Shown: piece after piece, positions 4,644 through 39,327 of the stretch
Numbering within the stretch: position 1 is the stretch's first letter
Layout: every line of letters starts with the position of its first letter
Source: a virus
Taxonomy: Duplodnaviria > Caudoviricetes
IMG/VR virus record: IMGVR_UViG_2744054422_000002
Span: 1 to 64,000 of that record
DNA length: 64,000 nucleotides
Direction: 5' to 3' (one strand)
Program-made: the position numbers and the translations under genes
The notes under the pieces: generated by a model
Databases searched by the model: none
Told to the model about the DNA's origin: nothing
Seen by the model: only the letters and a program-made list of their open reading frames with translations

Positions 4644-5735
4644 CTAGCCCTCCCACGCGAGCACGGTCAGGACAGCGCTCGCGACTTCGACCTGCTCATC
4701 CGACTGGTTCAGCAGCCGCACCCGCATAGACCGGCCAGCCGCCAGACGCTTCGTCAGCGGCACGATGGCGTAGGCCCCGCCGGGCGTGCCGATCACCTCG
4801 TGGATCGGGTGGTCCTGCTTGAGCGCACCCACTGCGTCGTACTCGCTCATGCGGACCTGGACGACTTCGTCGACGGGCAGGCCCTCGAACCGCAGGCTGA
4901 GCGAGCCGGTGAACGTCGCGGCGCCCTTGGCGAAGGTCGGGCTGTTCGTGGCGTGGCCGTCGGGCTCGTCGGTCCACTCGGTGGTGAACTCGATGTCGTC
5001 CCACAGGCCCGGCGCGAGCTGGTAGCTGTGGACGAGGCCGAGGTTGACGTAGTCGGGGTTCACGGTGTCGGTCTCCTGGGGGGTGGGGCTCCAGCTCGCC
5101 GGGTGCGCGAGTCGCTCGGCGACGTCGGCACGGAGCTGCGCCATGGTGAACTGGAAGGGGCCGCGGCGGCCGTACCCGGCGACCGGGCCGGCCGGGTCGG
5201 GCTTGCCTTCGACAGAGGTCTCCAGGTGCCCGGCGACGCTGCCCGCGCTCCAGCCGTGGAGGCGGCACAGCGCGGCGTTGAAGCGGACCCAGCTGTCGTA
5301 TTGGCCGCGCGTGTAGACGTCTTCCCCGTTGCCGAGGTTTTCGACTTCCAAGCCGTACAGCGAGTCGTTACCGTCGACCGTCTTGGATTTGTCCTGCTTC
5401 GGGAGCGGCTTCTCGGCCACGATCGCGTCGAAGACGTTCTTCGCGACCAGGCCCGCGTGGTTGGCACGGCCGTCGGCCACCAGGACGACGACGCCGCTCT
5501 TGGGCAGGTAGGCGTGGGCGAGGGGCGGCGGCAGGCCCGGCCGCCCCACCGTGGCGATCGTCGCCAGCGAGTTGACGCCCGCGGTGTGGTGGTTGAGCAC
5601 GCCGTGGACCGGACCGAAGATCTTGCCCGTCGCGGCGTCACGGCCGCGCGTCGTCCACCCGGCGAACTCGGTGAACGCAACGCCTTCCGCCTTCAGCGTG
5701 GCGCGCCACTGGGCTGGGGTTGCTGGGGTCGACAC
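4644..5735 (-). CDS. Endolysin, N-acetylmuramoyl-L-alanine amidase (Amidase_2)
   Basis: NHHTAG, GRANHAG, GLEVEN, GHLE..KPDP motifs; start moved to the GTG after GGGAG. Confidence 0.85.
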   Translation of the reverse strand: MSTPATPAQWRATLKAEGVAFTEFAGWTTRGRDAATGKIFGPVHGVLNHHTAGVNSLATIATVGRPGLPPPLAHAYLPKSGVVVLVADGRANHAGLVAKNVFDAIVAEKPLPKQDKSKTVDGNDSLYGLEVENLGNGEDVYTRGQYDSWVRFNAALCRLHGWSAGSVAGHLETSVEGKPDPAGPVAGYGRRGPFQFTMAQLRADVAERLAHPASWSPTPQETDTVNPDYVNLGLVHSYQLAPGLWDDIEFTTEWTDEPDGHATNSPTFAKGAATFTGSLSLRFEGLPVDEVVQVRMSEYDAVGALKQDHPIHEVIGTPGGAYAIVPLTKRLAAGRSMRVRLLNQSDEQVEVASAVLTVLAWEG

Positions 5736-5765
5736 GGCGATCACTCCCGACGTGGAGAGTTGACG

Positions 5766-5800
5766 CCCGGCCCAGAACCAGCGGCTACACCAGGAGTCTA
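5766..5800 (-). promoter_or_regulatory. Late-leader element copy 1 (endolysin)
   Basis: TAGACT-N9-GCCGCTGGTTCTGGGCCGGG. Confidence 0.8.
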
Positions 5801-6139
5801 ACTACCGGCCCCGGTCAGGGCGCTGTCGTCGTCGAGCGGCCCCCCATGACCGGACAGGGCCCGCGCAGTCGCCTCGCGGATACCGGCCGCGACCAGGTCC
5901 TCGTACTGCTGGCGCCGCGAGTCCTTCTCGGCGGCCAGCATTTCGGCGACGCGGGTGTCGTGCTGCTCGCGCTGCTCGGCGCGCAGCTCCTCGTAGACCT
6001 CCTGGGTCACGTACTTCGCGCCGTCCGGCAGCTCCGGTTCCAAGTCGCCGACCACGGTGATCCGGCCGAGGACGCCGTCCGGGAAGCGGATGTAGCGGGT
6101 GACCGGCTCGGGCAGGGGCAGGCCAGGGATGTCCAGCAT
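5798..6139 (-). CDS. Small fibre-associated protein (possible chaperone)
   Basis: GAGGAG RBS; RYIRFPDG...LPDGAKYVTQEVYEE; follows a fibre-like gene. Confidence 0.65.
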   Translation of the reverse strand: MLDIPGLPLPEPVTRYIRFPDGVLGRITVVGDLEPELPDGAKYVTQEVYEELRAEQREQHDTRVAEMLAAEKDSRRQQYEDLVAAGIREATARALSGHGGPLDDDSALTGAGS

Positions 6140-6149
6140 GGTGCGCTCC

Positions 6150-6986
6150 TCACAGACTGACGATCAGGGCCCGCAGGATGAAGTGGACTTGGTAGTAGTA
6201 CGCGCCGCCCGAGCCGCGGCCGGCCGTCGCGCTCAGCGTGATCGGCGCGGTGGCGCCAGGGGCGAGGGTGAGGCCCTCGGGGATGAATTTCGTGGCCTGC
6301 GCATGCGCGCCGACGATCGACCCGGTGCCCGTGTTGCGCGTGTAGAACATCTCGTCGGAGCCGTGACCGGTGCCCGCACCGGCCCCGGCCGGGAGAACCA
6401 GGTAGACGTCGACCTCCCGCTCTGTGTAGACCTGCGCGGGCCTGCACGTGTCGGGGTTCGTGATGTTGACCGAGAACGAGTCGATCACCGTGTTCTGCGC
6501 GGCTGGGACCGCAATGTCGTTGTAGGTGCGGTCGTCGAAATAGCTGGTGAAGCTGATCTTGCCGCGCGGCTCCGAGCGCAGCCGTCCTTGGCTGTCGCAG
6601 GCCACGACGCCGCCGAAGGTGTCCACGTTGCATGTGTAGGGCCACGTCTGGGTGTTGGCCTTCACCGGCGCGGAGGCGGAGCCGTTGCCGCTCAGGCCGC
6701 AGCCGGTGAGGACCTGTCCGCCGGCCGTGGGGACGAGGAGCCCGCCGTCGGGGCCGATACTGACGTTGTTCCCGGCCTGCCCGGACAAGTGGGCCGCGAT
6801 GACGCCGGTTGCCGCGTTGTACGTGATGCCGCTGCCGCCGGACAGGCAGGCGCGGACCGTCGAGCATGGGACGTCGGCCGAGATGACGTAGGGGTTGGCA
6901 GCGGAGCCGGAGCCGCTCAGGGTGACGTTCTCACCGGCCTGTACCGAGCAGTTGCAGAGTCCTCCGCCACAGCCGCATCGCGCCAT
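6150..6986 (-). CDS. Cys-rich minor tail / fibre protein
   Basis: MARCGCGGGLCNC; paralogous to 21683..23278 (GSAANPY, CLSGG..YNAATG, GCGL.G.G). Confidence 0.7.
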   Translation of the reverse strand: MARCGCGGGLCNCSVQAGENVTLSGSGSAANPYVISADVPCSTVRACLSGGSGITYNAATGVIAAHLSGQAGNNVSIGPDGGLLVPTAGGQVLTGCGLSGNGSASAPVKANTQTWPYTCNVDTFGGVVACDSQGRLRSEPRGKISFTSYFDDRTYNDIAVPAAQNTVIDSFSVNITNPDTCRPAQVYTEREVDVYLVLPAGAGAGTGHGSDEMFYTRNTGTGSIVGAHAQATKFIPEGLTLAPGATAPITLSATAGRGSGGAYYYQVHFILRALIVSL

Positions 6987-7016
6987 GGGTCCACCGTCCT
7001 CGCGGGGTTGTCTCGG

Positions 7017-7053
7017 CCCGGCCCACAACCAGCGGCGCGCACCGTCGAGTCTA
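7017..7053 (-). promoter_or_regulatory. Late-leader element copy 2
   Basis: TAGACT-N11-GCCGCTGGTTGTGGGCCGGG. Confidence 0.8.
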
Positions 7054-7180: not shown

Positions 7181-7903
7181 TCAGGCGAAGAGCCAGACGA
7201 TGACGATGCCAGCGCCTCCGGGGGTGCCGTTGACGCTGTCGCCGTCCCGGGCGAGGGCACCGGCCGCACCGCCGCCGAAGCCACGGCCCGCGCCCCCGCC
7301 GCCGCTGGACGCGCGCTGCCAGCCGCCGTGACCGAGCCTGGACTCGCCGCCTTCGCCGCTCTGCCCCTGGTCGCCGGTGATGCGGAGCGGGCCGCCGCCG
7401 GGACCGCCGCCCTGGGCCATGTCACCGATGCCTGCGGTCGGCCCGGACGTACCCGAGTAGCAGACCGGCGTGGCTCCTGACGGCATGACAGTTTGCCCGC
7501 CGAAGCCGCCGTTCGCGGTGCACAGGCCGCCGAAGGAGCTGTTGCCGCCATTGCCGCCGTCGACGGTGGGGGTGCCTGCGGTTCCGGCGTCGCCCACGAC
7601 GATCGTCTCTGCGGCGCCGAGCGCCGATGCGTCGATCAGGCGCTCGGCGTAGCCGCCGCCCGTACCTCCCGGTTGCGCGACCAGTTGACCGGCGTTCGCC
7701 CGCGCGCCCGCCGCCCCACCGCCGCCCGCCTGCACCTGGACGAAAATGCGCGACAGCCACGGGTAGTCGGCTTTCGCGAACGTCTCGGTGCCGGGCGTCG
7801 CGAAGTACAGGATGTCGCGGAGATCGGCGCTCCCCGGGACCATCGTCAGCCGGCCATCGGCTCCGACGTCGAAGTAGGCCGGATCCACACACACGCTTGC
7901 CAC
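7181..7903 (-). CDS. Glycine-rich minor tail protein
   Basis: VQVQAGGGGAAG...GGGYAE...GGAGIVIVW. Confidence 0.75.
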   Translation of the reverse strand: MASVCVDPAYFDVGADGRLTMVPGSADLRDILYFATPGTETFAKADYPWLSRIFVQVQAGGGGAAGARANAGQLVAQPGGTGGGYAERLIDASALGAAETIVVGDAGTAGTPTVDGGNGGNSSFGGLCTANGGFGGQTVMPSGATPVCYSGTSGPTAGIGDMAQGGGPGGGPLRITGDQGQSGEGGESRLGHGGWQRASSGGGGAGRGFGGGAAGALARDGDSVNGTPGGAGIVIVWLFA

Positions 7904-7933
7904 GGGCTTGCTCCATCAGGGGAGTTCCAGCGG

Positions 7934-7968
7934 CCCGGCCCACAACCAGCGGCGTCGACAGAAGGGTA
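7934..7968 (-). promoter_or_regulatory. Late-leader element copy 3
   Basis: TACCCT-N9-GCCGCTGGTTGTGGGCCGGG. Confidence 0.8.
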
Positions 7969-8850: not shown

Positions 8851-9891
8851 CTACGCCACCTCCGTTGCCGCCGCAGCGACCTGCACCTGCACGCTTTCCG
8901 TGCCGGGCGTGTTCTCGTCGCCGCCAGTCTCCGTGACTTTCACGCCGGTGATCTTGAGCCGCTGGGTGACCTTGCGGCACGTGCTGGCACTGGTGACGTC
9001 CAGCGCCCACCCGGGCACCAGGTTCGGCACGTCGATCGCCGCGAGCGGGCTGATGGTGACCTGCTGCGTGTCGATGAACACCGGCACCTGCGCCGAGGTG
9101 CGACGCCGCGCCTTCGCGGCCTGCACCGCCGACGCGGCGTCGTTGATCTCCGTCATCTGCACGTACCGCTCGTGCAGCCCGTACACCGGGTCGGTGCCGC
9201 CGTCCGATCCGATGACGCCGCTGTCGTCGCTGCCCTCGACGATCCACCGGGTGACGAGGGCCTTGCCGTCGTCGCCGACCTCCAGGCCCTCGGGCATGTC
9301 GACGTCCGACAGCCGGCCGACCGAGACCAGGTGCGTCTCGGGCAGCAGCAGGAACGTCGACCCGATGACCGTGTAGTCAATGCCCGCCTCCGCGAGCTGG
9401 TCGAGGTGGTCGCCGGTCTGCCCGACGCCAGCCGTGTACGAGCGGGAACCGCTGACCCCGGCCTTGCCGACGATCTGCACGGTGTGGCCCGGGTCGTCGG
9501 GGGCGAATCCGTCATCGATCAGCCACTCAGCGATCTCCGACAGGTCGACGTTCGTGAACGTCTTGTCCTCGTGCGGCACGCGGTCGTTCAGCCACACCGA
9601 GAGATCTTCGGCCAGAATCTCGACCTGCCCCAGCGACCAAGTGACCGACGTGACCGGCCCGTCCCACACGTACTGGCCGTCCCTGAAGATGACCAATCTT
9701 GATCGCCAGGACCCGATGGTGCCGAGCCGGTTGCAGCAGTCGCCATCCGGCTGGATCAAGGCGCGCGCCGCACTCGTGCCGTCCAGCACGCGGGACCACT
9801 CGATTTCCGTAAGCACCTCAGCGGTGCTGACCGTCGCGCCGTTCCTATCGAGCAGAACCGCGCTGTGAGTGCCACACCCGGCAACAGACAA
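8851..9891 (-). CDS. Minor tail / baseplate hub protein
   Basis: IEWSRVLD...LVIFRDGQYVWDGPV; second tail gene after the tape measure. Confidence 0.75.
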   Translation of the reverse strand: MSVAGCGTHSAVLLDRNGATVSTAEVLTEIEWSRVLDGTSAARALIQPDGDCCNRLGTIGSWRSRLVIFRDGQYVWDGPVTSVTWSLGQVEILAEDLSVWLNDRVPHEDKTFTNVDLSEIAEWLIDDGFAPDDPGHTVQIVGKAGVSGSRSYTAGVGQTGDHLDQLAEAGIDYTVIGSTFLLLPETHLVSVGRLSDVDMPEGLEVGDDGKALVTRWIVEGSDDSGVIGSDGGTDPVYGLHERYVQMTEINDAASAVQAAKARRRTSAQVPVFIDTQQVTISPLAAIDVPNLVPGWALDVTSASTCRKVTQRLKITGVKVTETGGDENTPGTESVQVQVAAAATEVA

Positions 9892-9915
9892 GGCCGGACC
9901 CCTCTCATCGAGGAG

Positions 9916-9953
9916 CCCGGCCCAGAACCAGCGGCTATCTGAACGCCAGGTTA
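9916..9953 (-). promoter_or_regulatory. Late-leader element copy 4
   Basis: TAACCT-N12-GCCGCTGGTTCTGGGCCGGG. Confidence 0.8.
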
Positions 9954-15000: not shown

Positions 15001-16473
15001 GGGGCCGAGCGCGACGAAGACGGGCGCCAACGCGGGAGCGATCTGCCCGAGTTGACCTACGAGGGCGGACAGGATGGGGCCGAGCTGGGCGGCGATCTGC
15101 GCGACCGTGCCGAAGATGTTCGAGACGGCCGTCTGCCCCGAGGCCGAGTTGACGAACTCGGCGAACGACTTCGTGATCTGCTGGATGTTGGCGAGGACCC
15201 CGCCACCGCTGACGCTCGCAGCGCTGAAGACGCCTTTCAGGATGCTGCCGATGTTCTGGAGGACCCCGCCGAGCTGGCCGAACACCGTCAGCGCGTTGTC
15301 GACCCACCGCACGACGTCGCCGCCCTGCGAGGCGTTTTGCAGGAACGTCCCGAACCGCTGCCCCAGGTTCGAGACCAGGCTCCCGAGCTGGCCGCCGTAC
15401 TTCTGGGCGATGACCGCGGCCACCTGCAGGAGACCCGCGGTGAGCTTGTTCGTCGTCTGCGACAGGCCCGTGACAGCCTGCGACGTACCGCCGAGGATGC
15501 TCTTGACGTTGGCGACGCCCTGAGCACCTTTGAGGTATCCCAGGGCTCCCCTCGCGGCGGCGCCCCACGCGGCGGAGATGCTCGTCAGCCCCGACTTGAG
15601 CGGGCCCTGCAACGCCTTCGCGGTGGCAGTGATCTGCCCCTCGACCTTGGCGAAGAACGCGTCCTGAACGCTGTTTCGCAAGGAGTCGAACGCCGGTTTC
15701 AGCGCCCGGACCTCGCGCGCCGCCGCCTGGGCCTTCGGCGACAGGTTCTCCAGGGACTTCTCGAACGCCTTGGAGTCCCCGGTCAGCGCGGCCTGGAACG
15801 CGTCACTGACCCCCGACAGTGCCAGCTTCAACGCGCCGAGCGCTGCCTGGAATCCGAGGATGGCGGCCGGGGCAGCGGCGATGATCCCGGCCGCCGGGGC
15901 GAGCGCCGCCGCGAACTTGGCGACGCCCGCCGCCGCACCCGTCGCGGCAATACCGATCGCGCCGAGCTTCAGCAGCCCGCCCAGCGCGCCGCCGACCCTC
16001 CCCGCAATACCTGCAACCCCGGACAGGGCCCGGGTCAGCCGGTTGGCGTCGACATTGACGTTCGCATTGACCCCCACGTCCGGCGCGTTGTGCGCCCGGA
16101 TACGGGCGTCGAAGTCCGACAGGTCAGGGACAACCCGGATGGGGATCTCAACGCCCGCCAGGAGCGCCCTCAGCCGCTCCACGAACCCCGTGACATCGGG
16201 CGCGATCGGGATGTCGATGGAGTCCAACGACCGCAGCCCGGCCAGCAACTGAGCGTCGAACCGGCTCAGGTCCGGCTCGACGCGGACCGTGACCGCCGCG
16301 GCGGCAAGACCCCGCTGGATCTGCCTGCGCATCTGGTCACCGATGTTGCGCGTCGCACGCAGCAGCGCCCGCTGAATGCGGATACCGGCAGCGCGAGACT
16401 CGGAGTCGGCGTTGCCGTCGTTGATATCCAGAGTGATATGGGCGGACCCGAAGTCCACGTCCTCGCCGGCCAC
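12019..16473 (-). CDS. Tail tape measure protein
   Basis: 1484 aa, Ala/Leu-rich periodic repeats; FARGGIVYGPTHALIGEAGPEVVIPL; two SPS(K/R)V motifs. Confidence 0.9.
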   Translation of the reverse strand: MAGEDVDFGSAHITLDINDGNADSESRAAGIRIQRALLRATRNIGDQMRRQIQRGLAAAAVTVRVEPDLSRFDAQLLAGLRSLDSIDIPIAPDVTGFVERLRALLAGVEIPIRVVPDLSDFDARIRAHNAPDVGVNANVNVDANRLTRALSGVAGIAGRVGGALGGLLKLGAIGIAATGAAAGVAKFAAALAPAAGIIAAAPAAILGFQAALGALKLALSGVSDAFQAALTGDSKAFEKSLENLSPKAQAAAREVRALKPAFDSLRNSVQDAFFAKVEGQITATAKALQGPLKSGLTSISAAWGAAARGALGYLKGAQGVANVKSILGGTSQAVTGLSQTTNKLTAGLLQVAAVIAQKYGGQLGSLVSNLGQRFGTFLQNASQGGDVVRWVDNALTVFGQLGGVLQNIGSILKGVFSAASVSGGGVLANIQQITKSFAEFVNSASGQTAVSNIFGTVAQIAAQLGPILSALVGQLGQIAPALAPVFVALGPALVSLITSLGPALAAIAPSLQVVARALADGLGQIGPSLAPLGQAIATTVQALAPLLPLAGQLVSVLAQLLAPALQAVAVALAPVISALVGALLPILPPLAQAFGQVLQALVPLAAALGQALGQALAAAAPLLTSLAQVASQVVAAIVPLISALVGALLPVLPPLVAALSAVLQALIPILPPIAQLVAALTPLIILIVRLLAPLVQITAAFVSWLTINAVVPIIQGVVTVLTGLVTAVAAVVGFIAQLPGLIVQGLSALGSLLATFFTNLFTTIGILVTTGFQTVVGFFTQLPSLILAGLQALPGLLLNLFTSAVAGVAIAILTLIAGIVFTFTELPGRILTALSSLGSFLLNAFVSGFNATTAAISSFLSTAASFFASLPGRIASALAALPGQIAGLFRSAGSSALGAARSAGSSVVSFFSGLPGRIGSALSSVGSKIAGAFHSAASSARSAVSSLISGVVSLFSGLGSKIVGAIGNVGSQIMSKIKSGIPSAVRKYLPFARGGIVYGPTHALIGEAGPEVVIPLSKPKRAAELAARSGLLGILGVAQARTLAAASSAQSNGAAANGALASLGKALADIADLLSNVGAQVVQGMVDGIRSHSGLIKSAAQDMAGTAITAAESTLQIASPSKVFAKIGQLVGAGFVKGLTGTAAQIKSTTDAMVKAITDAFKGKKTRVDDRLVSMLQAGNKQLTSLAARRDALVQKLADAQKFAADTAKSAVDAFSLQNLAQGQDTLTAKGLQAGLQAGIDQVKRFTAEITNLAKRGLSKDLLEQIIGLGPVQGAQLADVLKASTSDQLKRLSSLQAQLTKASGALGNTSADLLFDAGKQAGAGFLAGLKAQRKNIEQLMLQIAKGMEASIRTALRIKSPSRVMMHLGDMTGAGLHIGFISRMAALYAASRQAAQALVRGVSSQLSGMADAAPGLGGGNVVPLTRSQRLRQAGMDPKDLAGLGRGKSGGDVIHNHHWEIREVGSSHATAQRVLNRFVLAAGVTG

Positions 16474-16502
16474 CGGGCAACCTCACGCGTGCGCAGAGGA
16501 TG

Positions 16503-16534
16503 CCCGGCCCAGAACCAGCGGCGATCTCAGACTA
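16503..16534 (-). promoter_or_regulatory. Late-leader element copy 5 (tape measure)
   Basis: TAGTCT-N6-GCCGCTGGTTCTGGGCCGGG. Confidence 0.8.
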
Positions 16535-16540
16535 GCCGTT

Positions 16541-16873: not shown

Positions 16874-17313
16874 TCATTGCCGCCTCCGTACAGCTCCGTC
16901 ACCCACTCCAGCAGCTCGACCAGGACCCGGTCCGGCAGCCGCATCGACTTGTCCTCGACGCGGGTCGCGCCCGTCAGCTCACCGGCGTGCTTCTCCGCCT
17001 CGGCCCGCGACCGGAAGTGCGCCACCACCTTGCCGCCCTTGATGACTTCGAAGCGAAGGAACTGCTCAGCCGATTCGGGCGTCATGAGCGTCCCCAGGAA
17101 CGCCCGCATCGACCCGTACACGCTGCGCAAGGTGCCCGGCTCCATCTTCGTCAGGTCGGGCTCGTCGCCCAGCGCGGCTTGCGCTTCCTGGACCTTGGTG
17201 TAGCCGTCGAGGAACTCGTCCCCGAAGACTTCCGGAACGAATTCCAACTTGCCCAGGTCGCCGAGGTTCGCGACGTGGGGCTCAGTACGAACTGCGAAGT
17301 CTTTGGTTGCCAC
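16756..17313 (-). CDS. Tail assembly chaperone
   Basis: Upstream of the tape measure; LLEWVTELYGGGNDRPT then a low-complexity tail overlapping the second frame. Confidence 0.7.
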   Translation of the reverse strand: MATKDFAVRTEPHVANLGDLGKLEFVPEVFGDEFLDGYTKVQEAQAALGDEPDLTKMEPGTLRSVYGSMRAFLGTLMTPESAEQFLRFEVIKGGKVVAHFRSRAEAEKHAGELTGATRVEDKSMRLPDRVLVELLEWVTELYGGGNDRPTTPSSGSSRASRRAGTPGKAPSRSKVSTRTAGRSAR

Positions 17314-17341
17314 GGGTGTGCCCTTGTCTCCCGCGCGGTCG

Positions 17342-17376
17342 CCCGGCCCAAAACCAGCGGCGTACCTGGAAGGCTA
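17342..17376 (-). promoter_or_regulatory. Late-leader element copy 6
   Basis: TAGCCT-N9-GCCGCTGGTTTTGGGCCGGG. Confidence 0.8.
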
Positions 17377-20724: not shown

Positions 20725-20728
20725 CGAG

Positions 20729-21406
20729 TCAGGCCGGGACCGGCACGTAGTCACACGACGGCACCGGGGGCGCCACCGTGGTGATGAAGGTCCGCCGGTG
20801 GCACGTCGGGCCGAGCGGGGTGAGCATCGGGCCGGGGGTGTTGGCGGCGTCGGCCGGCTGGACGTCGTACGGGCCGATGTCCCAGTTGCCGCCCGCCTTG
20901 GTGTGACCGGTGATCTGAAGCGTGACCGCCTCAGATCCGATCTCCAGGTCACCGAGGAGACCGTTGGTCACCCATGGAAGGAGGAAGTAGATCCACTGAC
21001 CGGTAGCACCCGCGACGCAGGCCTCGCCCAGGACTTCCGCCCACAGTTCCAACGCGAAACCGGTGTCGCACTTGATCGAACAGGTGTCGAACCCGATGGG
21101 CTTGGCGTCGTACCCCATCACCACCGGGTTGCCAGTCAAAATCTCGATCAGTTCCGGGGACACGGAAAAGACGTTGAGCTCCAGGTCGAAGCCCTTAAAG
21201 GTAGGGCAGCCCTTTTTCGATCCACAGACGCGACCATTGGCGGCCTTGTACTCGATGTCGTCGCCGTCGTCCGAGTCGTTGTTCATCGCCAGGCTCGAAA
21301 AGCAGTCGAAGACGAACCCGTTGTCCGGGCCGGCGATGGGATTGCCGCACCGGTCAAGCCTGGTAATCCGCATGGTGTCCGCGTTCGCGATGAGCGGGCA
21401 GGACAT
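20729..21406 (-). CDS. Major tail protein
   Basis: MRITRLDRCG...ANGRVC...FALELW...YFLLPW...GPYDV; AGGAGG RBS. Confidence 0.8.
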   Translation of the reverse strand: MSCPLIANADTMRITRLDRCGNPIAGPDNGFVFDCFSSLAMNNDSDDGDDIEYKAANGRVCGSKKGCPTFKGFDLELNVFSVSPELIEILTGNPVVMGYDAKPIGFDTCSIKCDTGFALELWAEVLGEACVAGATGQWIYFLLPWVTNGLLGDLEIGSEAVTLQITGHTKAGGNWDIGPYDVQPADAANTPGPMLTPLGPTCHRRTFITTVAPPVPSCDYVPVPA

Positions 21407-21430
21407 GCCGGGACCTCCTTTTTTCAGGAG

Positions 21431-21463
21431 CCCGGCCCACAACCAGCGGCTGTAACCAGCATA
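21431..21463 (-). promoter_or_regulatory. Late-leader element copy 7 (major tail)
   Basis: TATGCT-N7-GCCGCTGGTTGTGGGCCGGG. Confidence 0.8.
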
Positions 21464-21682: not shown

Positions 21683-23278
21683 CTATCGGGTCATCGCGAT
21701 CAGATCGGTGTCGGTGAGCCACTGCTGGAAGGTCACGCTGCCCGCGATCACTCGGACCACCGGCCAGACCCTCACGGTGTAGCCGGTGTGCGGGGGCAGC
21801 ACGGCAGCCTGCGAGACGCCGAACGTGTACCGCTCGCGCCTGGCCGGGCCGTTGACGTAGACGCCGTGCGTCACCCGCGTACCGAGGGCGCCGCCGTTGA
21901 TCTGCACGGCGTAGCCCAACTCCCACTGCGCGTTCGCCGGCCACGACAGCTCGACGCGACCCGTGAACCGGGTGCTGAAGCTGATGCCACGGCAGGCGCT
22001 CAGGGTGTCGGCGGTGTAGGCGCCCTCGGCCCAGGCGGACGAGTCGACGAGGACGAACCCGCCCGTGACGCCGATGGTCGGCGTGCCAAGCGGATGGTTC
22101 TGCTGAAGAGTGACGGCCGCCGACGAGTGCTCGGGCGGCGTCCACAGTGCGCCGCTGGTCGGATCGCACTTGAGCGTCGAGTTCGCGACCGGGTCACAGC
22201 TCCAGTCGTCGGTCCACGGCTGCGAGCCGGCGACCGGGAAGGCCGCCAGCGGCGAGGCGGCCGTACCGGCGCCCTGGAGACCACAGCCGATCTCCAGCGG
22301 CGGGTCCGGCGGCACGAACAGCCGGCCGTCCGCGCCGAAGGCGAGCTGGTTGCCCGCGTCGGCGGACGGGGCGACGAGGAGCCCGGTGGGGGTCTCCTCC
22401 AGGCCGTTCGGCTCGGGCGCCACGATGACGTCCGCGGCGACCTGGTACGGGTCGCCGCTGGTGCCGGTGCCGGTGACGGTCATGTCGACGGTGTTCGTGT
22501 CGGCGGCCTGCAGAGCCGTCGACGCGGCCGGCGTGTAGAGCCCGCCGTCCGCGCCGAACACCGTGGTGTTCCCCGCGTCAGCGGACAGGCGGGCGGAGAT
22601 CTCGCCCGTGGCCGGGTCGTAGGCGGCGCCGTCCCCGGCCGAGAAGCAGCCGCGTACGTCCGCGCACTCGACGTACAGGCCGTCAGGGCCCGCCTGGAGC
22701 AGGTTGCTGCCGCCTGCGGGCGGCGCCGGGTCCACGATGACGTTGGTCGTGACGACGTACGGGTCACCGGCCGTGCCGGTGCCGGTCACCGAGTTGTCCG
22801 CCGTGGTGGTGTCCCCCGCCGTGACGACCGTGCCGCCGCCACCTCCGCCGGTCGGCGCGTACAGCCCGCCGTCCGCACCGAAGGAGACCGCGTTCCCCGC
22901 GTCTGTGGACAGGCGGGCGGAGATCTCGCCCGTGGCCGGATCGTAGGCGGCGCCGTCCCCGGCCGAGAAGCAGGTCCGGACGTCGGCGCACTCGACGTAC
23001 AGACCGTCGGGGCCTTCGCCGATCAGGTTCGTGCCGCCCTGCGGCGGCGTCGCGTCGAGGATGACGTCAGCGGTGACCGTGTACGGGTCGCCGCTCGTAC
23101 CGGTGCCGCTGAGTCCGAGGTCGACGGTCGTCGAGTCGGTGACCGCGAGCGCTGTCGGCTCGGCGGCCTCGGAGCTGATCGTGTACGGGTTCGCCGCGCT
23201 TCCATTACCGGTGACGGTGACGCCGGGGCCGGCGGTGACGCGGCAGTTGCACGGCGAGACGCCGCAGCACTTGGCCAT
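21683..23278 (-). CDS. Fibre-like protein with internal ~108-aa repeats
   Basis: MAKCCGVSPCNC; GPDGLYVECADVR.CFSAGDGAAYDPATGEISARLS occurs twice, 324 bp apart. Confidence 0.75.
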   Translation of the reverse strand: MAKCCGVSPCNCRVTAGPGVTVTGNGSAANPYTISSEAAEPTALAVTDSTTVDLGLSGTGTSGDPYTVTADVILDATPPQGGTNLIGEGPDGLYVECADVRTCFSAGDGAAYDPATGEISARLSTDAGNAVSFGADGGLYAPTGGGGGGTVVTAGDTTTADNSVTGTGTAGDPYVVTTNVIVDPAPPAGGSNLLQAGPDGLYVECADVRGCFSAGDGAAYDPATGEISARLSADAGNTTVFGADGGLYTPAASTALQAADTNTVDMTVTGTGTSGDPYQVAADVIVAPEPNGLEETPTGLLVAPSADAGNQLAFGADGRLFVPPDPPLEIGCGLQGAGTAASPLAAFPVAGSQPWTDDWSCDPVANSTLKCDPTSGALWTPPEHSSAAVTLQQNHPLGTPTIGVTGGFVLVDSSAWAEGAYTADTLSACRGISFSTRFTGRVELSWPANAQWELGYAVQINGGALGTRVTHGVYVNGPARRERYTFGVSQAAVLPPHTGYTVRVWPVVRVIAGSVTFQQWLTDTDLIAMTR

Positions 23279-23307
23279 GGGAAGGCTCCAGGTGGAAAGG
23301 AGTCTCG

Positions 23308-23342
23308 CCCGGCCCACAACCAGCGGCGTTACTTCGAGTCTA
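23308..23342 (-). promoter_or_regulatory. Late-leader element copy 8
   Basis: TAGACT-N9-GCCGCTGGTTGTGGGCCGGG. Confidence 0.8.
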
Positions 23343-23664: not shown

Positions 23665-23684
23665 TCAGCCGGTCCGTTCCCTGA

Positions 23685-29400: not shown

Positions 29401-29850
29401 GGTGGTGTCCTCCGCTGGGCAGTCGACCGGCGCGACTGGCGCGTACGGCTGCGCGAAGTCGCCATCCAGGAACGCGCCGAGGAGGGTGGGAGCGCCGCCG
29501 TTGCACGGGTCGAGGGCCCACACCTCCACGTACGTGACGTCCGCGGTGCCGTCGCCGCTGGTGTCGTCGCACAGGGTGCGGGTGGTGATCTGCCGGGCGC
29601 AGCCGTTGCTCTGGCCGCCGCACACACTGAGCGTCCCGGTCGGCGTGTAGGCCGCGCCGGTGGACGGGGTGACGATCCGCGTGCCGACCCGGTCGCCGCT
29701 GGTGGAGTCGTAGACCGGCTCAACGAGGGCCACGCCAGCCACGCTTCCGTCAGGCAGTACGTCGCAGAGGAGGACGGTCTCGACGTCGACGCGGCGCGTG
29801 GCCGCTACGCCGCTGACGATGACCGGGCCGCCCCCGCAGCATCCGCTCAC
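26431..29850 (-). CDS. Large Cys-rich modular virion protein (LCD repeats)
   Basis: 1139 aa; repeated LCD..ADG...LDG.TPY.P.GTVG.C; CDDT(S/D)GDG loops; two unique inserted domains. Confidence 0.8.
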   Translation of the reverse strand: MSGCCGGGPVIVSGVAATRRVDVETVLLCDVLPDGSVAGVALVEPVYDSTSGDRVGTRIVTPSTGAAYTPTGTLSVCGGQSNGCARQITTRTLCDDTSGDGTADVTYVEVWALDPCNGGAPTLLGAFLDGDFAQPYAPVAPVDCPAEDTTADTPVVLGTVCYDDGAGGAGTAAVLKCAACGDPAVTYLDLATGAVLAAASIVPCRAAADQTAQLLCDVQADGTSAPFLRTFITDDAGTTTADTLLDGTTAYTPTGSVGVCLPVNDCASPTTPTATIGLCLPDGTPIAVTVVRDCDGVVSSEGWINLQTGAYSAGAPPVGTVACGSSQSVQVSGTFCDVLADGTVAGLVLIEYSYAADGTIDSVRLVDATTGATYTPTGTVTTCPVGVEQPEQDVVQLCDTAADGTVTAMVRDYRRDETGAIVGHSDYLLDGTPYTPTGTVGDCQPDPQPERDLAVLCDVQANGSVTTFLRDYARDAAGTVTGHADYALNGSAPYAPTGTVGVCQPSPCKDCETLVLCDVPTGAPVTITGTATSGTLSNGVGWTATDGGNGTAMPVNQSNVDGSWWGLHSFPHAVTAPTRWTFSRPSIVEFSVFVHYYPSNPGISWAQLPTGLEVVSLPDGYSYNSATGVLTRTADGVPPDPCSYVTTPQVAGSARFRTSGAVTSVTTAPAPNSRAAVCGTFLTYWAGAVSVLPAGPFLRHICRSCDGTPTITDTLLDGTTPYTVAGTAGVCEPPEPESCCQPAQVCIQQDPTQEVEFISNEAHLNNNSVDPVWKWTPDINAANPPWYDMYEFQYSGAWSVTDSDTARPAWWVSPHPNGASAQSSPAQPNEGPSLLNTHWFPRAYFDLPANADPATIQLQATVFNADQIGRAFRLNNGAWQSLPATATHNGTTYTFGPATIPGAQAGRNFLYLDVEETVGGGSGLMVHLKVTYEVIPETRSWTRMVCCDDSVYYLDEDGQRQDAIPDGWHLAPCGGEAGSSTPACAKQVVERCGCDDTDGDGIGDVQYTELWAVDPCDGAAPTLLGTYLDGDLTQPYTPVSPVDCTAAEALPGPLSTGVRAVTGTAAQNIAGTFPGAQSVSLTVLAGAVNVTMSDGAAVPVPAGVTMTWSVAQDSDTALAVASFAGATAAASYLLNWTYR

Positions 29851-29918
29851 AGAGTCACCCCCCGCGTGCCGAGGCGACCGAGGGCAAGCGGCGATAGACG
29901 TAGGAATGTTCCGGGCAT
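29847..29918 (-). CDS. 23-aa leader ORF coupled to the 1139-aa gene
   Basis: GAGGAAG RBS, ATG 27 nt after motif copy 9; MPGTFLRLSPLALGRLGTRGVTL* with GTGA overlap. Confidence 0.5.
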   Translation of the reverse strand: MPGTFLRLSPLALGRLGTRGVTL

Positions 29919-29945
29919 GGACGCTTCCTCACGGGAGGTTCATCG

Positions 29946-29978
29946 CCCGGCCCAGAACCAGCAGCGTCCCCAAGGTTA
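29946..29978 (-). promoter_or_regulatory. Late-leader element copy 9
   Basis: TAACCT-N7-GCTGCTGGTTCTGGGCCGGG. Confidence 0.75.
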
Positions 29979-31697: not shown

Positions 31698-31763
31698 TCT
31701 CGCATTTTTCGAAGCGTGCGCTGCCTGGTGGGGTGGCCAAGAGTCCAAAAAAGCGGGGACCAC

Positions 31764-31796
31764 GTGGCCCGCTGCACCCTCGGTGCAGCGGGCCAC
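31764..31796. terminator. Hairpin between convergent genes
   Basis: GTGGCCCGCTGCACC-CTC-GGTGCAGCGGGCCAC, 15-bp perfect stem. Confidence 0.75.
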
Positions 31797-31802
31797 ACCC
31801 GT

Positions 31803-34800
31803 TTACAGCGTGATCACGCTCGTCCAGGTAACGGTCACGGTGCCGGTGTCCGCCGCGATGGTGAGTGGGCCGGTCAACAGGGCGTCGGTGTCGCGGGCGA
31901 CGCTCCAGGTCGCCGCCTCGCCGGTGTGCAGGGTGCTGGGGCCGTCGGCAGTCGTAACGAGGCCGTCGCCGCCGAAGGCGACCGCGGTGACGGACTGGAG
32001 GGTCGGCCACACGGCGGCGTCCCATGACTGGCCGGCCGTGAGTTCCCGGCGGCGGGCCTGGACACCGAACGCTGGGTCGGCGCCCTCGGCGTCGTCGAGG
32101 GCGTTGCAATCCACCGGCGCGACCGGGGTGTACTCGGCAGTGAGGCCGTCGGTGTAGGTGCCCAGGCTGGTGAGGGCGCCTGTGCAGTCGACGGCCAGGA
32201 GCTCGACATAGCCGACGTCGGGCAGGCCGTCGCCGTCGGTGTCGTCGCACCGGCACTCTTGGATGACGTTCTGTGCCCGGCACGGCTGTTCCGGGCAGCA
32301 GGAGCCTCCGACCGCCTCACAGTGGCCCGCCGCGCCGGTGGGCGTGTACGGCTGTCCGTCGATGGTCGTGTCAGTGACCGCGGCGACCTCGCCGGTCTCA
32401 CAGTCCGTGATGACGTTGCGAAGGAACTGCACCGCGCAACCGGTCTGGTCGTAGACCACGGTGGCGTCGAACGCGGACAGCTGCCACGCGGTGCGGCGCG
32501 GCGGCGGGCATAGGGCGCCGCTGTCGTCGTAGGCGTCGAACGCGACCAGGACGGCGATGTTCCCGGCGGCGAGGTCGGCGGCCGGGACGTCCGCCTCCGC
32601 AGTGAGCGTCCCCGTCCACCCGGCGGGCGTGTTGGCCGGGGGGAGCGCGAGCGCTACCCGGTTCGCTTCATCGGTGCCGTTGTACATGCCGATGAACCCG
32701 GTGGTGGCGCAGCCGTTGTCAGGGCCGAGCTGGACAACGTCTACCTGTACCGAGACATGTGCGGTGCCGGCGTCACAGACCGGCAGCTGCGCCTGGATGA
32801 TGGCCGCGGCGGTGCGCACAGTGCCGGTCGTGCCCGGCTGCGGCCCCGCCGCGTCGGGAAGGGTGAGTGTGCCGCCGTCCCACAGGGTTTGGGCCCCTGC
32901 CGTGGCCACGCCCGTGGTGTACGGGTAGTAGGGCGCTGGCGGGGTGTCGGTGATGGTCGGGCTCGGCGTGCCGTCGGTGGGCAGGTCGCACAGGAGGAGC
33001 GTGCTGGTGTTCCGGCACGGCGGCGTGCACTGGCCGACCGTGCCCGCGATGGCGTACGGGGTGGTGCCGTCGAGGGTGGTGTCCTGGGTGGCGGTGAGGG
33101 GGCCGTCGCAGCTGTAGGTCAGGTGCCGCAGGAAGGCTGTCACGGTGCCGTCGGCGGCCGTGTCGCACAACGGCAGCGTCTCAACGTCCGTACACGTGCC
33201 GGCAACAACGGTGCCGCCGCTGGTGGACGCGCACTGTGCGGGCTGACCGGTGACGGTGTACGGGTCGCCGTCGAGGGTGGTGTCCGTGACGGCGAGGACA
33301 GCGCCAGTGACACAGCCGGTGGTGATCGTGCGGAGGAACTGCGCGCCGCAACCGTCGGTATCGTAGGCGTACGCGGCGGTGAAGTTCCGGGCCTCCCACT
33401 GGCGTTGGTCCGGCGGCGGGCACGTCGCGGTCTGGAACGTCTCCACGTCGAGCCAGACAGCGACGTCGCCGGCGGCCAGGTCTGCCGCGGGGACGTCCGC
33501 CTCAATGGTCAGCGTCTGGGGCGCGCCGACTGGGGTGTTGAAGAGGCCGGTACCCGACGCGAGGACCGACCCGTCCGTGTGGAACAGCCGGAAGCGGCCC
33601 GCGCCGGAGCAGCCAGCACCAGGGCCGAAGTTCTCGACCACGACCGACAGCGACAGGTGGACGGTGCCCGCGTTGCATGCGGGCGCATCCGCCTGCAAGG
33701 TGGCGGCGACGTACCGGTGGACCTGGGTGATGACGCCCGGGTTGGTCGAGACGTCCGGGCCGAAGGTGATCGTTCCACCGGACCAGAGCGCGGCTCCGCC
33801 GCCGGGGCGGAGAACGAAGTCGCCGTTCGGGATGTCCGCAATGAACTGCTGCGCCGTGTCCGTCACGACGGAGACGCCGGTGGCAGGCTCGTCGTCGGGG
33901 AGGTCGCACAGCAGCAGCGTGTTGGCGTTGCTGCACGGTTCCGCGCACACGCCGACGGTGCCGGTGGCGGCGTACGGCGTGCCGTCCAGGCCGTAGTCCT
34001 TGTGTCCGGTGATCTGGCCGGTGGTGGCGTCGCGCCGGTAGTCCCGCAGGAACGGGACCGCGGTGCCGTCCGCCTGGACGTCGCACAGGACGGTGAGGTC
34101 CAGGTCCGCGGCTGGCGCGCCGGTCCCGGCCGGGCAGATGTTCAGCTGCCCCTGGAGCGTGTAGGTGGTGCCGGTGGCCGGGTCGACCAGGCGCACGGAG
34201 GCCAGGGAGCCGTCCGGGTTGTACTCGTACTCCACAAGGACCAGGCCGAGGACGTCGCCGGTGGCCGGGTCCACATCACAGAGCAGCCCGGCGAGTTCGA
34301 AGGCCCGGGAGTCCCCGCACGCGGCGGCGCCGGTCGGGGGCGCCCCGGCGGAGAAGGCGCCGGTGGTGAGGTTGATCCACCCGTCCTGGGTGACCACGCC
34401 GTCACAGTCGCGGGTGACCACCACGGCGATGGGTGTGCCGTCGGCCAGGCACAGGCCGAGGGTCGCGGCCGGGGTGGTCTGCTCCGCGCACGGTGTTGAG
34501 CCGCCGTCAGTTCCGGCGCAGGCGCCGACCGTGCCGGTGACGACGTGCGGGGTCTGCCCGTCGAGCGCGACGTCCTCGTACGACGCCGTCCCGTTGAGGA
34601 AGACGTACCGGCGCAGGAAGGGTCCGCTGCCGTCGCACAGCATCACCGTCTCGCGGTCGGGGCAGCCGTAGGTGCAGGCGACTGGCGCGGTCGGCACGTA
34701 CGGCACCGACGGGTCGTCCTGGTAGGTGAGGACGAGTTCGGCCGTGCCGTCGGCGCGAATGCACCACAGCTCGCTGTAGGTGTCGTCGGGCTGGCCGTCG

Positions 34801-35297: not shown

Positions 35298-35783
35298 TCA
35301 GTCCTCCGGGTGGGCCTGACGGCGGTGGGTGGCAAGGGCGCGGTCGCTCTTGAAGGGGCGGTCGCAGTCGGGGCACTTGGGCTGGCCGTCTTCGGCGGCT
35401 GCGTCGCTTCGGTCGCTCGCATCGGCCGGGTGGACGTCGAGCGGCACGGCGCCGGGCGGGTACGCCTCGGCAGGCACCTCGGGCAGCGGCTCGCCGGGGA
35501 TCCCGTCCCGCTCCGGCTGGTCGACGCCGAGGAGCTCCAGGCCGCTGGCCGGGTCGGTCGGCTCAGGCTCGTCGGGAATGACGTATGCGTGCCCATCGAC
35601 CACCGCGCCGACCAAGAGCCGCTCGGGCACGCTGGTGAACAGGCCGTACGGGACGGCGAAGTCCACCGGCGACACCGTGCGCACCTTCGGGTCCTGAGCG
35701 ACCGCCCAACGGGCGAAGGCGGTCCGCAGGTCACGGGCCGGCTGGACGGTGATGAACGCTCTACTCACGGGCGAGGCCCCCAT
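35298..35783 (-). CDS. Hypothetical protein with a C-terminal C2H2 zinc finger
   Basis: PKCPDCDRPFKSDRALATHRRQAH. Confidence 0.65.
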   Translation of the reverse strand: MGASPVSRAFITVQPARDLRTAFARWAVAQDPKVRTVSPVDFAVPYGLFTSVPERLLVGAVVDGHAYVIPDEPEPTDPASGLELLGVDQPERDGIPGEPLPEVPAEAYPPGAVPLDVHPADASDRSDAAAEDGQPKCPDCDRPFKSDRALATHRRQAHPED

Positions 35784-37585: not shown

Positions 37586-37619
37586 GCGGTCCCGCCCCCT
37601 TCGCTGGGGACGGGGCCGC
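37586..37619. terminator. Hairpin between the capsid and HNH genes
   Basis: GCGGTCCCGCCCCC / GGGGACGGGGCCGC. Confidence 0.6.
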
Positions 37620-37632
37620 GGCCGTCTGTGGG

Positions 37633-39258
37633 TCAGGCGATCGGGCAGGTGATGCCGAGCTGCTCGCCGGTGCGGCCGTCGGGGCAGACCGGCACGGTCA
37701 CGACGCGCGCCTCCTGATTACGGGTAATCAACGCACTGCACTCCTCGGTGAAAAGTGCCGTGTAGTCGTTCACGGAGAACTTCGTACTGTCATGAATTAC
37801 CCCGAGGCTGATCTCGCCGCCTCGTCCGGCCTCGAACGTTCCCGCCGGGTAGATGAGGAACGGGATGCTGCTCGGCCAGTCGACGGCCGGGTTCGGGCCG
37901 CCGATCTCGGTGGGAACGGCCGGGTTGAGGCCGCGCGCCCACTGGATGGAGATGCCCAGCTCGGCGAAGGCGTTGATGACGTCCCGGGTGCTGATGTCGC
38001 TGATCGGCACGCCGTTCTGGCGGGCGATGTCCGCCAGGAACAGGTTGCGCGCCCACCAGGGGAAGACGACCTCGATGTTGATGTTCGCGCAGAGAGACAG
38101 CTTCTCCGTTAGGTCCGCCGCCTGGAGGGCGACGGCGGCGAACATGGCCGAGAACGCTCCGAACGTCGCCGTGATGGTGACGGCGGTCGACGCCGCGACG
38201 GCCTGCGTGAACAGCTCCTGGCGGATGCGGATCTCGTGCGCGACCATCGCGAGGGACTGGTAGTACGCCACCAGCTCCGGGAAGTGCCGCTGCGTCAGGA
38301 TGCCGGACTCCAGGCAGGCGCCGATGGCCTCACAGCGGACCTCGACGGGGTCAGGGCAGGGGATGCGGAAGCACGGCTTGACGGCGCCGGAGATGTCGTC
38401 GGCCTCGGTGTGCACCCACGTCATCGCGGCGACGTCGAGCGACGGCATCGGGAAGTACCTGAGTCCGCCGCGCGCGAGCTGGATCTCCGGCAGGTCCCAC
38501 AGCATCTCCGGGCAGGACATGCCGGTCAGCTCGTACACAGTCTCGGACGGCGCACACCATCCGCCGCTGGCCACGAGGTCGCCGCCGTTGAGGCGGGACT
38601 GGTCGCCGGCGAGGACGACGGCACGGGTGCCCTCGGTGCCCGAGGAGCTGTCGTTGACGATCAGCTGCTCGGGGAACGGCAGCCGGTACGAGGCGGTCAG
38701 ACCGACGCCGCCGCCCGCCGTCTTGAGGGCGTTGGCGCGGCGGATGATGCCCTCGGTGACCCCGGCCATGTCGAGGGCCTGGCCCGGCTGGTAGCCGGGG
38801 ACGTCGACGGAGGCGGTGATCTCCGGGCGCGGGTTCGGGTCGGCGGGCAGTACGCGCGGCTGGTGGGCGCGGACCCGGGACAGGTCCAGGGAGCGCCCCT
38901 TGACGGTGGCGGCCGCGGTGACGGTCTCCTTGGCGGGCTCCGCCTCGACGGCGGGCTCGACGGCGGCCGGTTCGGCCGGCTCGACGGTGGCGGCCGTCTC
39001 GGGGTCATCGCCGCGCACGGTGGCGGCGAGGGCCTCGATCTCGGCGGCGGCCTTCTGCGCGGCCTCGATCCGCTCTGCCTTCTCCGCGCGGATGTTCTCG
39101 ACCCCGGTGGCCAGCCCACGGAGCTGGACCAGGTCGTCGGTGGTGACGGTGCTGCTGCGCGACATCGCGTCGAACGCGTTGATCGCGCCATCGAGGAGGG
39201 CATCCAGCTCTTCGTCGTTGAGGACTGTGATGTCCTCGGGAAGCGAGAACTCTTCCAT
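37633..39258 (-). CDS. Major capsid protein with N-terminal scaffold-like coiled coil
   Basis: LVASGGWCAPSETVYEL, DLPEIQLARGGL, HDST....NDYTALFTEE. Confidence 0.8.
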   Translation of the reverse strand: MEEFSLPEDITVLNDEELDALLDGAINAFDAMSRSSTVTTDDLVQLRGLATGVENIRAEKAERIEAAQKAAAEIEALAATVRGDDPETAATVEPAEPAAVEPAVEAEPAKETVTAAATVKGRSLDLSRVRAHQPRVLPADPNPRPEITASVDVPGYQPGQALDMAGVTEGIIRRANALKTAGGGVGLTASYRLPFPEQLIVNDSSSGTEGTRAVVLAGDQSRLNGGDLVASGGWCAPSETVYELTGMSCPEMLWDLPEIQLARGGLRYFPMPSLDVAAMTWVHTEADDISGAVKPCFRIPCPDPVEVRCEAIGACLESGILTQRHFPELVAYYQSLAMVAHEIRIRQELFTQAVAASTAVTITATFGAFSAMFAAVALQAADLTEKLSLCANINIEVVFPWWARNLFLADIARQNGVPISDISTRDVINAFAELGISIQWARGLNPAVPTEIGGPNPAVDWPSSIPFLIYPAGTFEAGRGGEISLGVIHDSTKFSVNDYTALFTEECSALITRNQEARVVTVPVCPDGRTGEQLGITCPIA

Positions 39259-39290
39259 GGGGTCGGTCTCCAAAAGATCGATCTTGGAGA

Positions 39291-39327
39291 CCCGGCCCAC
39301 AACCAGCGGTCGTCTGTGGAGATAGTA
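39291..39327 (-). promoter_or_regulatory. Late-leader element copy 10 (major capsid)
   Basis: TACTAT-N11-ACCGCTGGTTGTGGGCCGGG. Confidence 0.75.

Follow-up and report, generated by a model that had tools for sequence, protein, structure and literature searches.

The stretch analysed here, a 64-kb window, forms the first 64 kb of a 93-kb provirus record of a Streptomyces prophage (IMG/VR record IMGVR_UViG_2744054422_000002), and its late genes are headed by copies of a short repeated word that we call the tag. On the minus strand the 20-mer GCCGCTGGTTNTGGGCCGGG occurs ten times, every copy being intergenic, co-oriented and located where an initial annotation of the sequence had placed it (Table 1). 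Eight copies are exact and two carry a single change, the one at 29946 starting with GCT and the one at 39291 with ACC. Shuffled sequence yields a mean of 0.04 matches for the window, and none of 100 shuffles reaches 11; the only further match in the window, at 22634 with three mismatches, falls within an open reading frame (ORF) and was treated as chance. When up to two mismatches are allowed, the whole 93-kb provirus holds the tag ten times on its reverse strand and not once on its forward strand.

The tagged genes are capsid, tail, fibre and lysis genes, some of whose products are unnamed. The endolysin is an Amidase_2 protein (phrog_880), and the supposed fibre gene behind the tag at 7017 encodes an unnamed protein of 278 amino acids (aa) with the N terminus MARCGCG and no Pfam or PHROG family. 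As had been described, all ten copies lie 6-12 nucleotides (nt) after a TANNNT hexamer and are followed by a start codon at 24-32 nt; for the endolysin, a GTG 21 nt downstream of the tag is an alternative start. Behind the tag at 29946 the nearest start codon is indeed present, but it opens a 23-codon upstream ORF and not the 1139-aa gene. This ORF, the nearest one, ends in GTGA, its stop overlapping the GTG of the 1139-aa gene, which suggests translational coupling via a leader peptide. The portal (44980-46731), MuF-protease (41026-44733) and DUF1360 (46728-47171) genes carry no tag, so that the tagged class comprises only part of the virion genes.

The same setting is found in relatives. From related actinomycete phages we gathered 409 distinct tag copies with their flanks, including a subset of 308 with a -10 box and a plausible Shine-Dalgarno (SD) sequence. 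A TANNNT hexamer ends 5-15 nt upstream of the tag in 342 of the 409 copies, compared with 18 of 409 in a control window, and this spread bears out the variable spacing to the -10 box that had been counted against a DNA site. Within the 308-copy subset, the hexamer has the consensus TA[G/C][A/C]CT, with C at position 5 in 92% of copies and a G two bases before it in 59%; the start codon follows the tag by 22-35 nt in 291 copies, and the base directly before the tag is C in 175, A in 75, T in 44 and G in 14. In this subset the 18 nt preceding the hexamer contain no -35 signal, the 18 bases ahead of that G show no conservation, and a scan for sigma-70 -35/-10 sites returned 0 promoter-like sites. 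These features point to a minimal, host-type, -10-only actinobacterial promoter from which transcription probably starts at or just before G1 of the tag. The initial placement of the element in the RNA leader of late genes, directly after the -10 box, is retained, as is the argument that a shared tag implies one common reader.

Covariation of the tag as RNA

Read as RNA, the tag fits a 21-nt hairpin on the sense transcript, here named P1, with a predicted outer stem of pairs 1-21, 2-20 and 3-19. Over the 409 copies, pair 2-20 is CG in 399, UA in 6, UG in 4 and CA in 0, and pair 3-19 is CG in 352, UA in 13, UG in 44 and CA in 0. Pair 1-21 is GC in 382, GU in 8, AU in 2 and AC in 1, the remainder being mostly chance hits in unrelated genomes, and the capsid tag of the window is itself a compensated A1-U21 example. 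Taken together, the three outer pairs hold 56 G-U cells against 1 A-C cell. This tolerance of G-U but not of C-A points to sense-strand RNA; in a DNA site with two-fold symmetry, neither single change should be favoured over the other. An alignment of 150 rows (A1) was composed of the 10 window copies, all 61 further rows that deviate from GCC...GGC, and 79 out of the 238 consensus rows that were left. In A1 pairing holds in 99.9% of cells, and the 3 pairs show double changes in 13 cells, which none of 500 shuffles equals; every slid register is paired in at most 66% of cells. The initial annotation had proposed that GCCGCUGGUU stays unpaired as a toehold, a proposal contradicted by the pairing of positions 1-3 with 19-21 within the tag, with its double changes and without C-A at 2-20 and 3-19.

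Because the inner part of the tag is invariant in A1, its pairing is a matter of modelling. In the preferred model, (((..((((.....))))))), which is the centroid of the predicted fold, pairs 6-18, 7-17, 8-16 and 9-15 would enclose a pentaloop U10-N-U-G-G14, with G4C5 bulged. Relatives contain insertions of 1-2 nt after G4 (gCCGACTGG, gCCGTCTGG and gcCGTTCTGG) that fall inside this bulge, and under the same model the change U9-to-C of Woodruffvirus phages produces a C-G pair and the change C16-to-T a G-U pair. A model considered earlier (4-16, 5-15 and 6-14, with C17G18 bulged) was set aside, its support being no better than that of the later one, which is preferred because the insertions and the U9-to-C change fit it. 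An Rfam scan of the whole window, with E up to 1, gave no family match at any tag.

The predicted loop differs between phages in a consistent manner. One related prophage has C12 in 7 of 7 tags and another A12 in 9 of 9, and IMG/VR contains 24 stretches with A12 and 16 with C12. Of the loci with at least three copies, 65 have U alone at position 12, 4 have A/C only and another 4 are mixed. Across 72 such loci, the base is uniform within the locus in 66 for position 12, in 13 for position 11 and in 28 for position 3. A loop base that is free between phages and fixed within a phage argues for a reader that would travel with the phage. The two variant prophages (G021 and G248) were found via the candidate protein described below, and many tags of the A lineage have the outer stem GUC...GAC.

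The exact tag word occurs in at least 118 IMG/VR stretches and at least 120 genome stretches. Among the matches listed, the hosts are nearly all Streptomyces, Kitasatospora, Embleya, Nonomuraea, Planotetraspora, Planomonospora, Sphaerisporangium and Micromonospora; single matches in unrelated phyla look like chance. TurkishDelight, an isolated temperate Streptomyces phage, carries nine copies, all within its virion module, and is the only one of 50,697 phage records in which BLAST finds the main tag form. The Woodruffvirus phages TP1604, Mischief19 and phiSAJS1 have one or two copies each of a loop variant, GCYGCTGGCGKTAGGCCGRG, which, among the copies matched to genes, precedes the capsid gene in all three and the major tail gene in TP1604. 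In two Streptomyces chromosomes searched with up to one mismatch, all tags lie in one co-oriented cluster, with 8 in about 25 kb and 7 in about 17 kb. The genes common to this provirus, TurkishDelight and the Woodruffviruses belong to the virion module only.

The window tags are single copies only, unlike the tandem pairs, 26-40 nt apart, that stand before major tail, tape measure or fibre genes of relatives (18513 and 18552, and 22904 and 22930, in TurkishDelight; 44072 and 44112, and 46629 and 46656, in the related prophage G248). Literature searches found no published description of the tag, supplementary files and subscription journals lying outside their reach, and as a shared control element of late genes it is apparently undescribed. 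New here are the wobble-asymmetry argument, the loop dialects, the insertion-tolerant bulge and the candidate reader.

Helix P2 and the search for a reader

A second helix, P2, is predicted to join the bases after the tag to the SD and pre-start region. In minimum-energy folds of the window leaders, the SD is buried in the endolysin, minor tail, tape measure, major tail, capsid and 29946 leaders, partly buried at 23308 and 7934 and poorly buried at 7017 and 17342; it is clearly hidden in at least 6 of the 10. All five pairings with the ribosome site that the initial annotation named (major tail, hub or minor tail, tape measure, capsid and endolysin) are present in these folds. It had listed 7017, 17342 and 23308 as weaker, which is the case for the first two, while the third still has its SD partly buried. 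Forcing P1 in the window leaders costs 5.6-17 kcal/mol, because P2 then loses its base, and where P2 is fully formed, bases 1-12 of the tag are predicted to be single-stranded in several leaders.

Related leaders show the same tendency. For 295 of them the own fold is at -15.2 kcal/mol, compared with -13.2 kcal/mol when the 3' half is swapped, and the own half beats the swapped one in 176 of 295. The mean probability that the SD is unpaired is 0.26 in 282 related leaders and 0.41 in 75 other TurkishDelight genes used as controls, and it is below 0.05 in 32% of the former versus 8% of the latter. Masking in these models is real but partial, and appears to come mainly from an anti-SD word directly after the tag.

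In 20 of 20 tape-measure leaders, P2 joins tag positions 18-21 and four more bases to GGTTGCCC before the start, with double changes that include A19-U. Major tail leaders fall into two P2 sub-types, both using tag GGGC(C), and A19 and A20 variants of the tag often have a compensating change in both P1 and P2. These patterns suggest that in some gene families P2 borrows the 3' strand of P1, in which case full P2 and P1 would be mutually exclusive and compete. The 5' GCCGC of the tag could also pair with GUGGC at the start, as it does in several minimum-energy folds. A GCN second codon is present in 170 of 295 tagged genes and in 19 of 106 other TurkishDelight genes, an excess that is uncertain as gene families are not independent.

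The initial annotation had further envisaged one antisense RNA that would open all of the stems. No copy of the tag was found on the opposite strand of the 93-kb provirus with up to two mismatches, nor on that of two Streptomyces host genomes with up to one mismatch (three host genomes were searched in all), and the antisense trigger is accordingly abandoned. The search of the provirus, TurkishDelight and the three host genomes for such a partner returned only the tags' own complements and two isolated coding-region words. One word, at provirus position 85488 (+), agrees with the complement of tag positions 7-21 at 14 of 15 bases and lies within ORF 85279-85764; the other, at TurkishDelight position 62049 (+), is an exact 13-mer complement of tag positions 1-13 within gene 79. 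Both were rejected as triggers: they lie in unrelated coding genes, cover different parts of the tag, are not common to the phages and are probably chance. Pairing of the tag with one Streptomyces 16S-23S-5S operon was likewise rejected, the ungapped scores of 39, 31 and 27 showing no excess over shuffled-tag means of 30, 30 and 26.

Because only virion-module genes are common to the tagged phages, a phage-encoded reader would be expected to sit in the virion module, and the reader would otherwise belong to the host. A candidate, P0001, is encoded in the tagged capsid operon, two genes downstream of the capsid gene, and carries the finger CPDCDRPFKSDRALATHRRQAH (Table 1). Its Pfam matches are zf-C2H2 and the double-stranded-RNA-binding zf-C2H2_jaz, both below cut-offs, with no other Pfam type, and the Cys and His of the finger together with several Arg are invariant across 41 homologues. 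TurkishDelight gp19 is built in the same way, whereas in the Woodruffvirus homologues a Lys/Arg-rich tail takes the place of the finger. The loci contain 30 distinct homologues: the finger forms the C-terminus of 24, an Arg/Lys-rich tail that of 4, and the other 2 run off the end of their locus. Among the matches listed, homologues occur in 10 of 301 Streptomyces genomes, namely all 7 with visible tag clusters, two variant-dialect prophages and one fragment; among sequenced phages they occur only in TurkishDelight and the Woodruffvirus group (15 records). The candidate is one of few non-virion-looking proteins common to the provirus, TurkishDelight and the three Woodruffvirus phages. Its AlphaFold model (predicted local distance difference test score 75.5) has a confident alpha/beta N-domain, a Foldseek search against PDB matched the C2H2 finger only, and sources annotate the protein only as 'C2H2-type zinc finger protein' or 'hypothetical'.

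Elsewhere in the window, no tRNA genes were found. For window positions 15800-24000, a look-up of public reads listed no RNA data set. A weak Pxr-like Rfam match at 31739-31804 (+), which scores 35.5 bits (gathering score 80; E 0.017) and adjoins a plus-strand insert between two giant Cys-repeat genes, is most likely noise.

Table 1. Leader cassettes of the window and the gene of the candidate reader (P1, predicted tag hairpin; P2, predicted helix to the SD and pre-start region)
Feature	Position	Strand	-10 box	P1	Start codon and gene	Remarks
Leader cassette 1	5733..5800	-	TAGACT 5795-5800	5765-5785	Endolysin GTG 5735, alternative GTG 5744	Predicted SD-hiding helix
Leader cassette 2	6984..7053	-	TAGACT 7048-7053	7016-7036	ATG 6986 of unnamed 278-aa protein	P2 weak
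Leader cassette 3	7901..7968	-	TACCCT 7963-7968	7933-7953	GTG 7903 of 240-aa glycine-rich tail-fibre-type protein	
Leader cassette 4	9889..9953	-	TAACCT 9948-9953	9915-9935	TTG 9891 of 346-aa minor tail protein	Predicted 14-bp P2, from motif position 13 to start codon
Leader cassette 5	16471..16534	-	TAGTCT 16529-16534	16502-16522	Tape measure GTG 16473	Predicted P2 takes motif positions 18-21
Leader cassette 6	17311..17376	-	TAGCCT 17371-17376	17341-17361	GTG 17313 of 185-aa protein in tail-chaperone position	P2 weak
Leader cassette 7	21404..21463	-	TATGCT 21458-21463	21430-21450	Major tail ATG 21406	Predicted P2 of GCCGGGCUCCU with AGGAGGUCCCGGC
Leader cassette 8	23276..23342	-	TAGACT 23337-23342	23307-23327	ATG 23278 of 531-aa protein of unknown function	
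Leader cassette 9	29848..29978	-	TAACCT 29973-29978	29945-29965, with U3	GTG 29850 of 1139-aa Cys-repeat protein	Upstream ORF 29847-29918
Leader cassette 10	39256..39327	-	TACTAT 39322-39327	39290-39310, with compensated outer pair A1-U21	Major capsid ATG 39258	
Candidate reader P0001, unproven	35298..35783	-			161-aa protein, capsid operon	Conserved N-domain (phrog_30321), acidic linker, C-terminal C2H2 zinc finger

Weighing the explanations

The best reading of these data, to which we give about an even chance, is a regulon-wide RNA operator in the late leaders, probably read by a phage-encoded protein. The initial annotation had named an RNA-binding protein as the alternative to antisense RNA, and it is this alternative that we now favour with the same balance of belief and doubt, the binding itself being predicted. 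Each site would be the start of a late transcription unit, composed of a -10 promoter, P1 and a gene-specific P2, with P1 at, or a few bases from, the mRNA 5' end. One trans-acting protein would read P1 as an RNA operator and hold it shut, so that P2 is trimmed or opened, and this opening would raise the translation, and perhaps the stability, of all late messages together. The logic would be that of Com on the mom mRNA of phage Mu, extended to a whole gene class. The tag copies, the promoter box, the outer stem of P1, P2 in part of the leaders and the lack of an antisense partner are what the analysis shows; the start site, the inner stem, the existence of the reader, the direction of its effect and its identity we infer.

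A number of observations weigh against this reading. On its own P1 is a weak hairpin, whose energy of about -5 kcal/mol makes it no more stable than shuffled sequence (z 0.3 to 1.0). The uniformity of position 12 is inflated, as the dialect loci were fetched by patterns that fix this position; the A-only and C-only phages, which lie outside the reach of that bias, cannot be explained by it. The tag does not vary between genera in which the identity of virion proteins is only 40-60%, which could mean a host reader. The ribosome-site-occluding hairpin of the initial annotation is found in many leaders but is less general than proposed, a strong P2 forming in only about a third of some 280 related leaders, and the switch may therefore apply to some genes only. 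P2 also arises mostly from variable bases, the probability that the SD is unpaired being 0.29 without the tag and 0.26 with it, and the 3' arm of the tag matches the pre-start bases with 4.43 paired bases compared with 3.97 in control genes, a slight excess.

Other points against it concern the candidate protein. It travels with the whole virion module, so that its co-occurrence with the tag holds for every module gene; A12 and U12 phages are not distinguished by any column of its alignment, nor does the finger helix follow the dialect. Two of five genomes of other genera, with 1-2 tags each, gave no homologue. A VIA-align search of the candidate gave generic ferredoxin-like matches (Z up to 5.3) and no functional pointer for the N-domain, and the protein could be a virion or DNA-binding protein. 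As the reader it is a lead with a low chance of proving right. We hold as similarly doubtful the fuller proposal that hairpin and capsid-operon protein, the latter combining a ferredoxin-like N-domain with a tail, zinc-finger or Arg-rich, that can be exchanged, are partners in an RNA-protein pair dedicated to switching on late-regulon translation, with self-feedback as the product of the first tagged operon, and that the dialects U12, A12, C12 and GYUAG are orthogonal pairs.

Among the rival explanations, a passive or host-read 5' element without a phage reader is unlikely but carries real weight. Such an element would shield late mRNAs from 5'-end-dependent RNases or bind a conserved host protein, P2 would merely set the translation level of each gene, and the cassette would amount to a strong internal promoter plus stabiliser, increasing the output of abundant virion proteins. 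It is in keeping with the tag's position at the predicted 5' end, with the same tag in phages of all the actinomycete genera listed above, with the absence of common genes from the early regions of tagged phages, and with the restriction of Woodruffvirus tags to capsid and major tail, the two most abundant proteins. A simple stabiliser, however, needs no invariant loop and bulge, and each phage keeps to one loop dialect although U12 and A12 phages both occur in Streptomyces; the host genomes searched are without the tag outside prophages, and its complementarity to the host ribosomal RNA operon is at chance level. Far less probable is that a repressor or activator of the phage recognises the motif as double-stranded DNA at +1 to +20, as an operator or a stoperator-like roadblock. 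The covariation of positions 1-3 with 19-21, with 56 G-U cells against 1 C-A cell, is a strand-specific asymmetry that a DNA-binding protein would not impose, the distance between tag and -10 box ranges over 5-15 nt, and insertions of one and two bases are tolerated at a single spot, after G4. In favour of a DNA site, the tag is asymmetric, co-oriented, intergenic, promoter-proximal and multi-copy, like the Cluster A stoperators mentioned in the available text of PMC3203893, and lineage dialects are typical of repressor-operator pairs.

We give a marginally smaller chance still to antitermination of the put or boxB type, in which the hairpin would modify the RNA polymerase that made it and each late unit would be read to its end. 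A small pentaloop hairpin directly after each promoter, the Arg-rich, N-like tails of some candidate-reader homologues and the tandem hairpin pairs of relatives would suit such a system, but terminator-like sites in 4000-41000 are at shuffle level (6 versus 5.9 and 4 versus 5.0), A1 has no boxA-like second conserved block next to the tag, and ten separate promoters leave little need for read-through. The toehold model, in which the 5' half of the tag is free and an antisense RNA acting in trans opens all stems, has the slightest chance of all. It draws on the predicted single-strandedness of bases 1-12 in several leaders with full P2 and on the two antisense words, at provirus position 85488 and in TurkishDelight gene 79. 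These words are unrelated, non-shared and within coding regions; moreover, positions 1-3 pair within the tag, loop base 11 is free to vary, and the opposite-strand searches of provirus and hosts were negative.

Late-gene control in actinomycete phages is almost unmapped, and the tag cassette offers a compact, easily testable unit. The tag marks virion genes of a widespread Streptomyces-group prophage family and of TurkishDelight, and its loop variant marks the capsid and major tail of Woodruffvirus. If a single reader acts on all ten messages, the cassette would provide a small portable expression switch for Streptomyces engineering, and should the fuller proposal above hold as well, its natural loop dialects would be ready-made orthogonal hairpin-reader pairs for high-GC bacteria. 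The loop variants and the candidate protein, with its zinc finger or Arg-rich tail, serve as direct experimental handles.

Comparison with known systems

In phage T4 the late genes e, soc, 49 and I-TevI have hairpins that sequester the ribosome-binding site, and the late promoter lies inside the helix, so that late transcripts are made without its 5' arm. As in T4, a helix is predicted to hide the ribosome site of late genes here. In T4 the promoter that is used decides whether the helix forms, whereas in the tagged leaders the whole of P2 lies downstream of the predicted start, and another agent would therefore have to open it.

The N/boxB system of lambdoid phages consists of a pentaloop stem near the start of a phage transcript that is read by a phage Arg-rich peptide, with phage-specific loop dialects. 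A genome carries two nut sites, whose effect is on termination and which depend on boxA and host Nus factors. The predicted small pentaloop hairpin near the transcript start, the dialects and the Arg-rich tails of some candidate homologues resemble this arrangement; the ten tag copies, the lack of a second conserved box in A1 and of a terminator excess in 4000-41000, and the link to ribosome-site masking differ from lambda nut.

A comparable actinophage repeat is the start-associated sequence (SAS) of Cluster K mycobacteriophages, as far as the available text of PMC3203893 describes it: a 13-bp word that contains the SD (AGGAG) and stands directly before the start, in 11-19 copies. The tag is likewise a co-oriented, multi-copy actinophage repeat near translation starts, but it contains no SD, lies 22-35 nt before the start and follows a -10 box. 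The inverted repeats of the ESAS described in the same text do not covary as RNA pairs, whereas the tag shows RNA-type covariation; for the SAS/ESAS reader, the authors left open RNA or protein, host or phage (PMC3203893). A paper on phiSASD1 promoters (PMC13722658) concerns, in its available part, an unrelated phage and promoters and has no bearing on the tag.

Together with N/boxB, the closest analogue of the proposed system is Com/mom of phage Mu. There, according to the available text of PMC6483171, the translation start is hidden in a helix with a short hairpin immediately 5' of it, and the small zinc-finger protein Com binds this hairpin and exposes the start. The layout of P1 followed by P2 is similar, and the tagged capsid operon has a gene for a zinc-finger protein. 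However, an SD- or start-sequestering helix is found here for a subset of leaders only, with a strong P2 in only part of them, and the binding of a reader is predicted. Com is a 62-aa protein with a CCCC finger, whereas the candidate has 161 aa, a C2H2 finger and no detected similarity to Com. The likeness is one of analogy and not of membership, and the tag is a member of neither the Com/mom nor the N/boxB family. Com controls one gene and the tag heads ten units; if one reader does open ten messages, this would be a Com/mom mechanism on the scale of a regulon.

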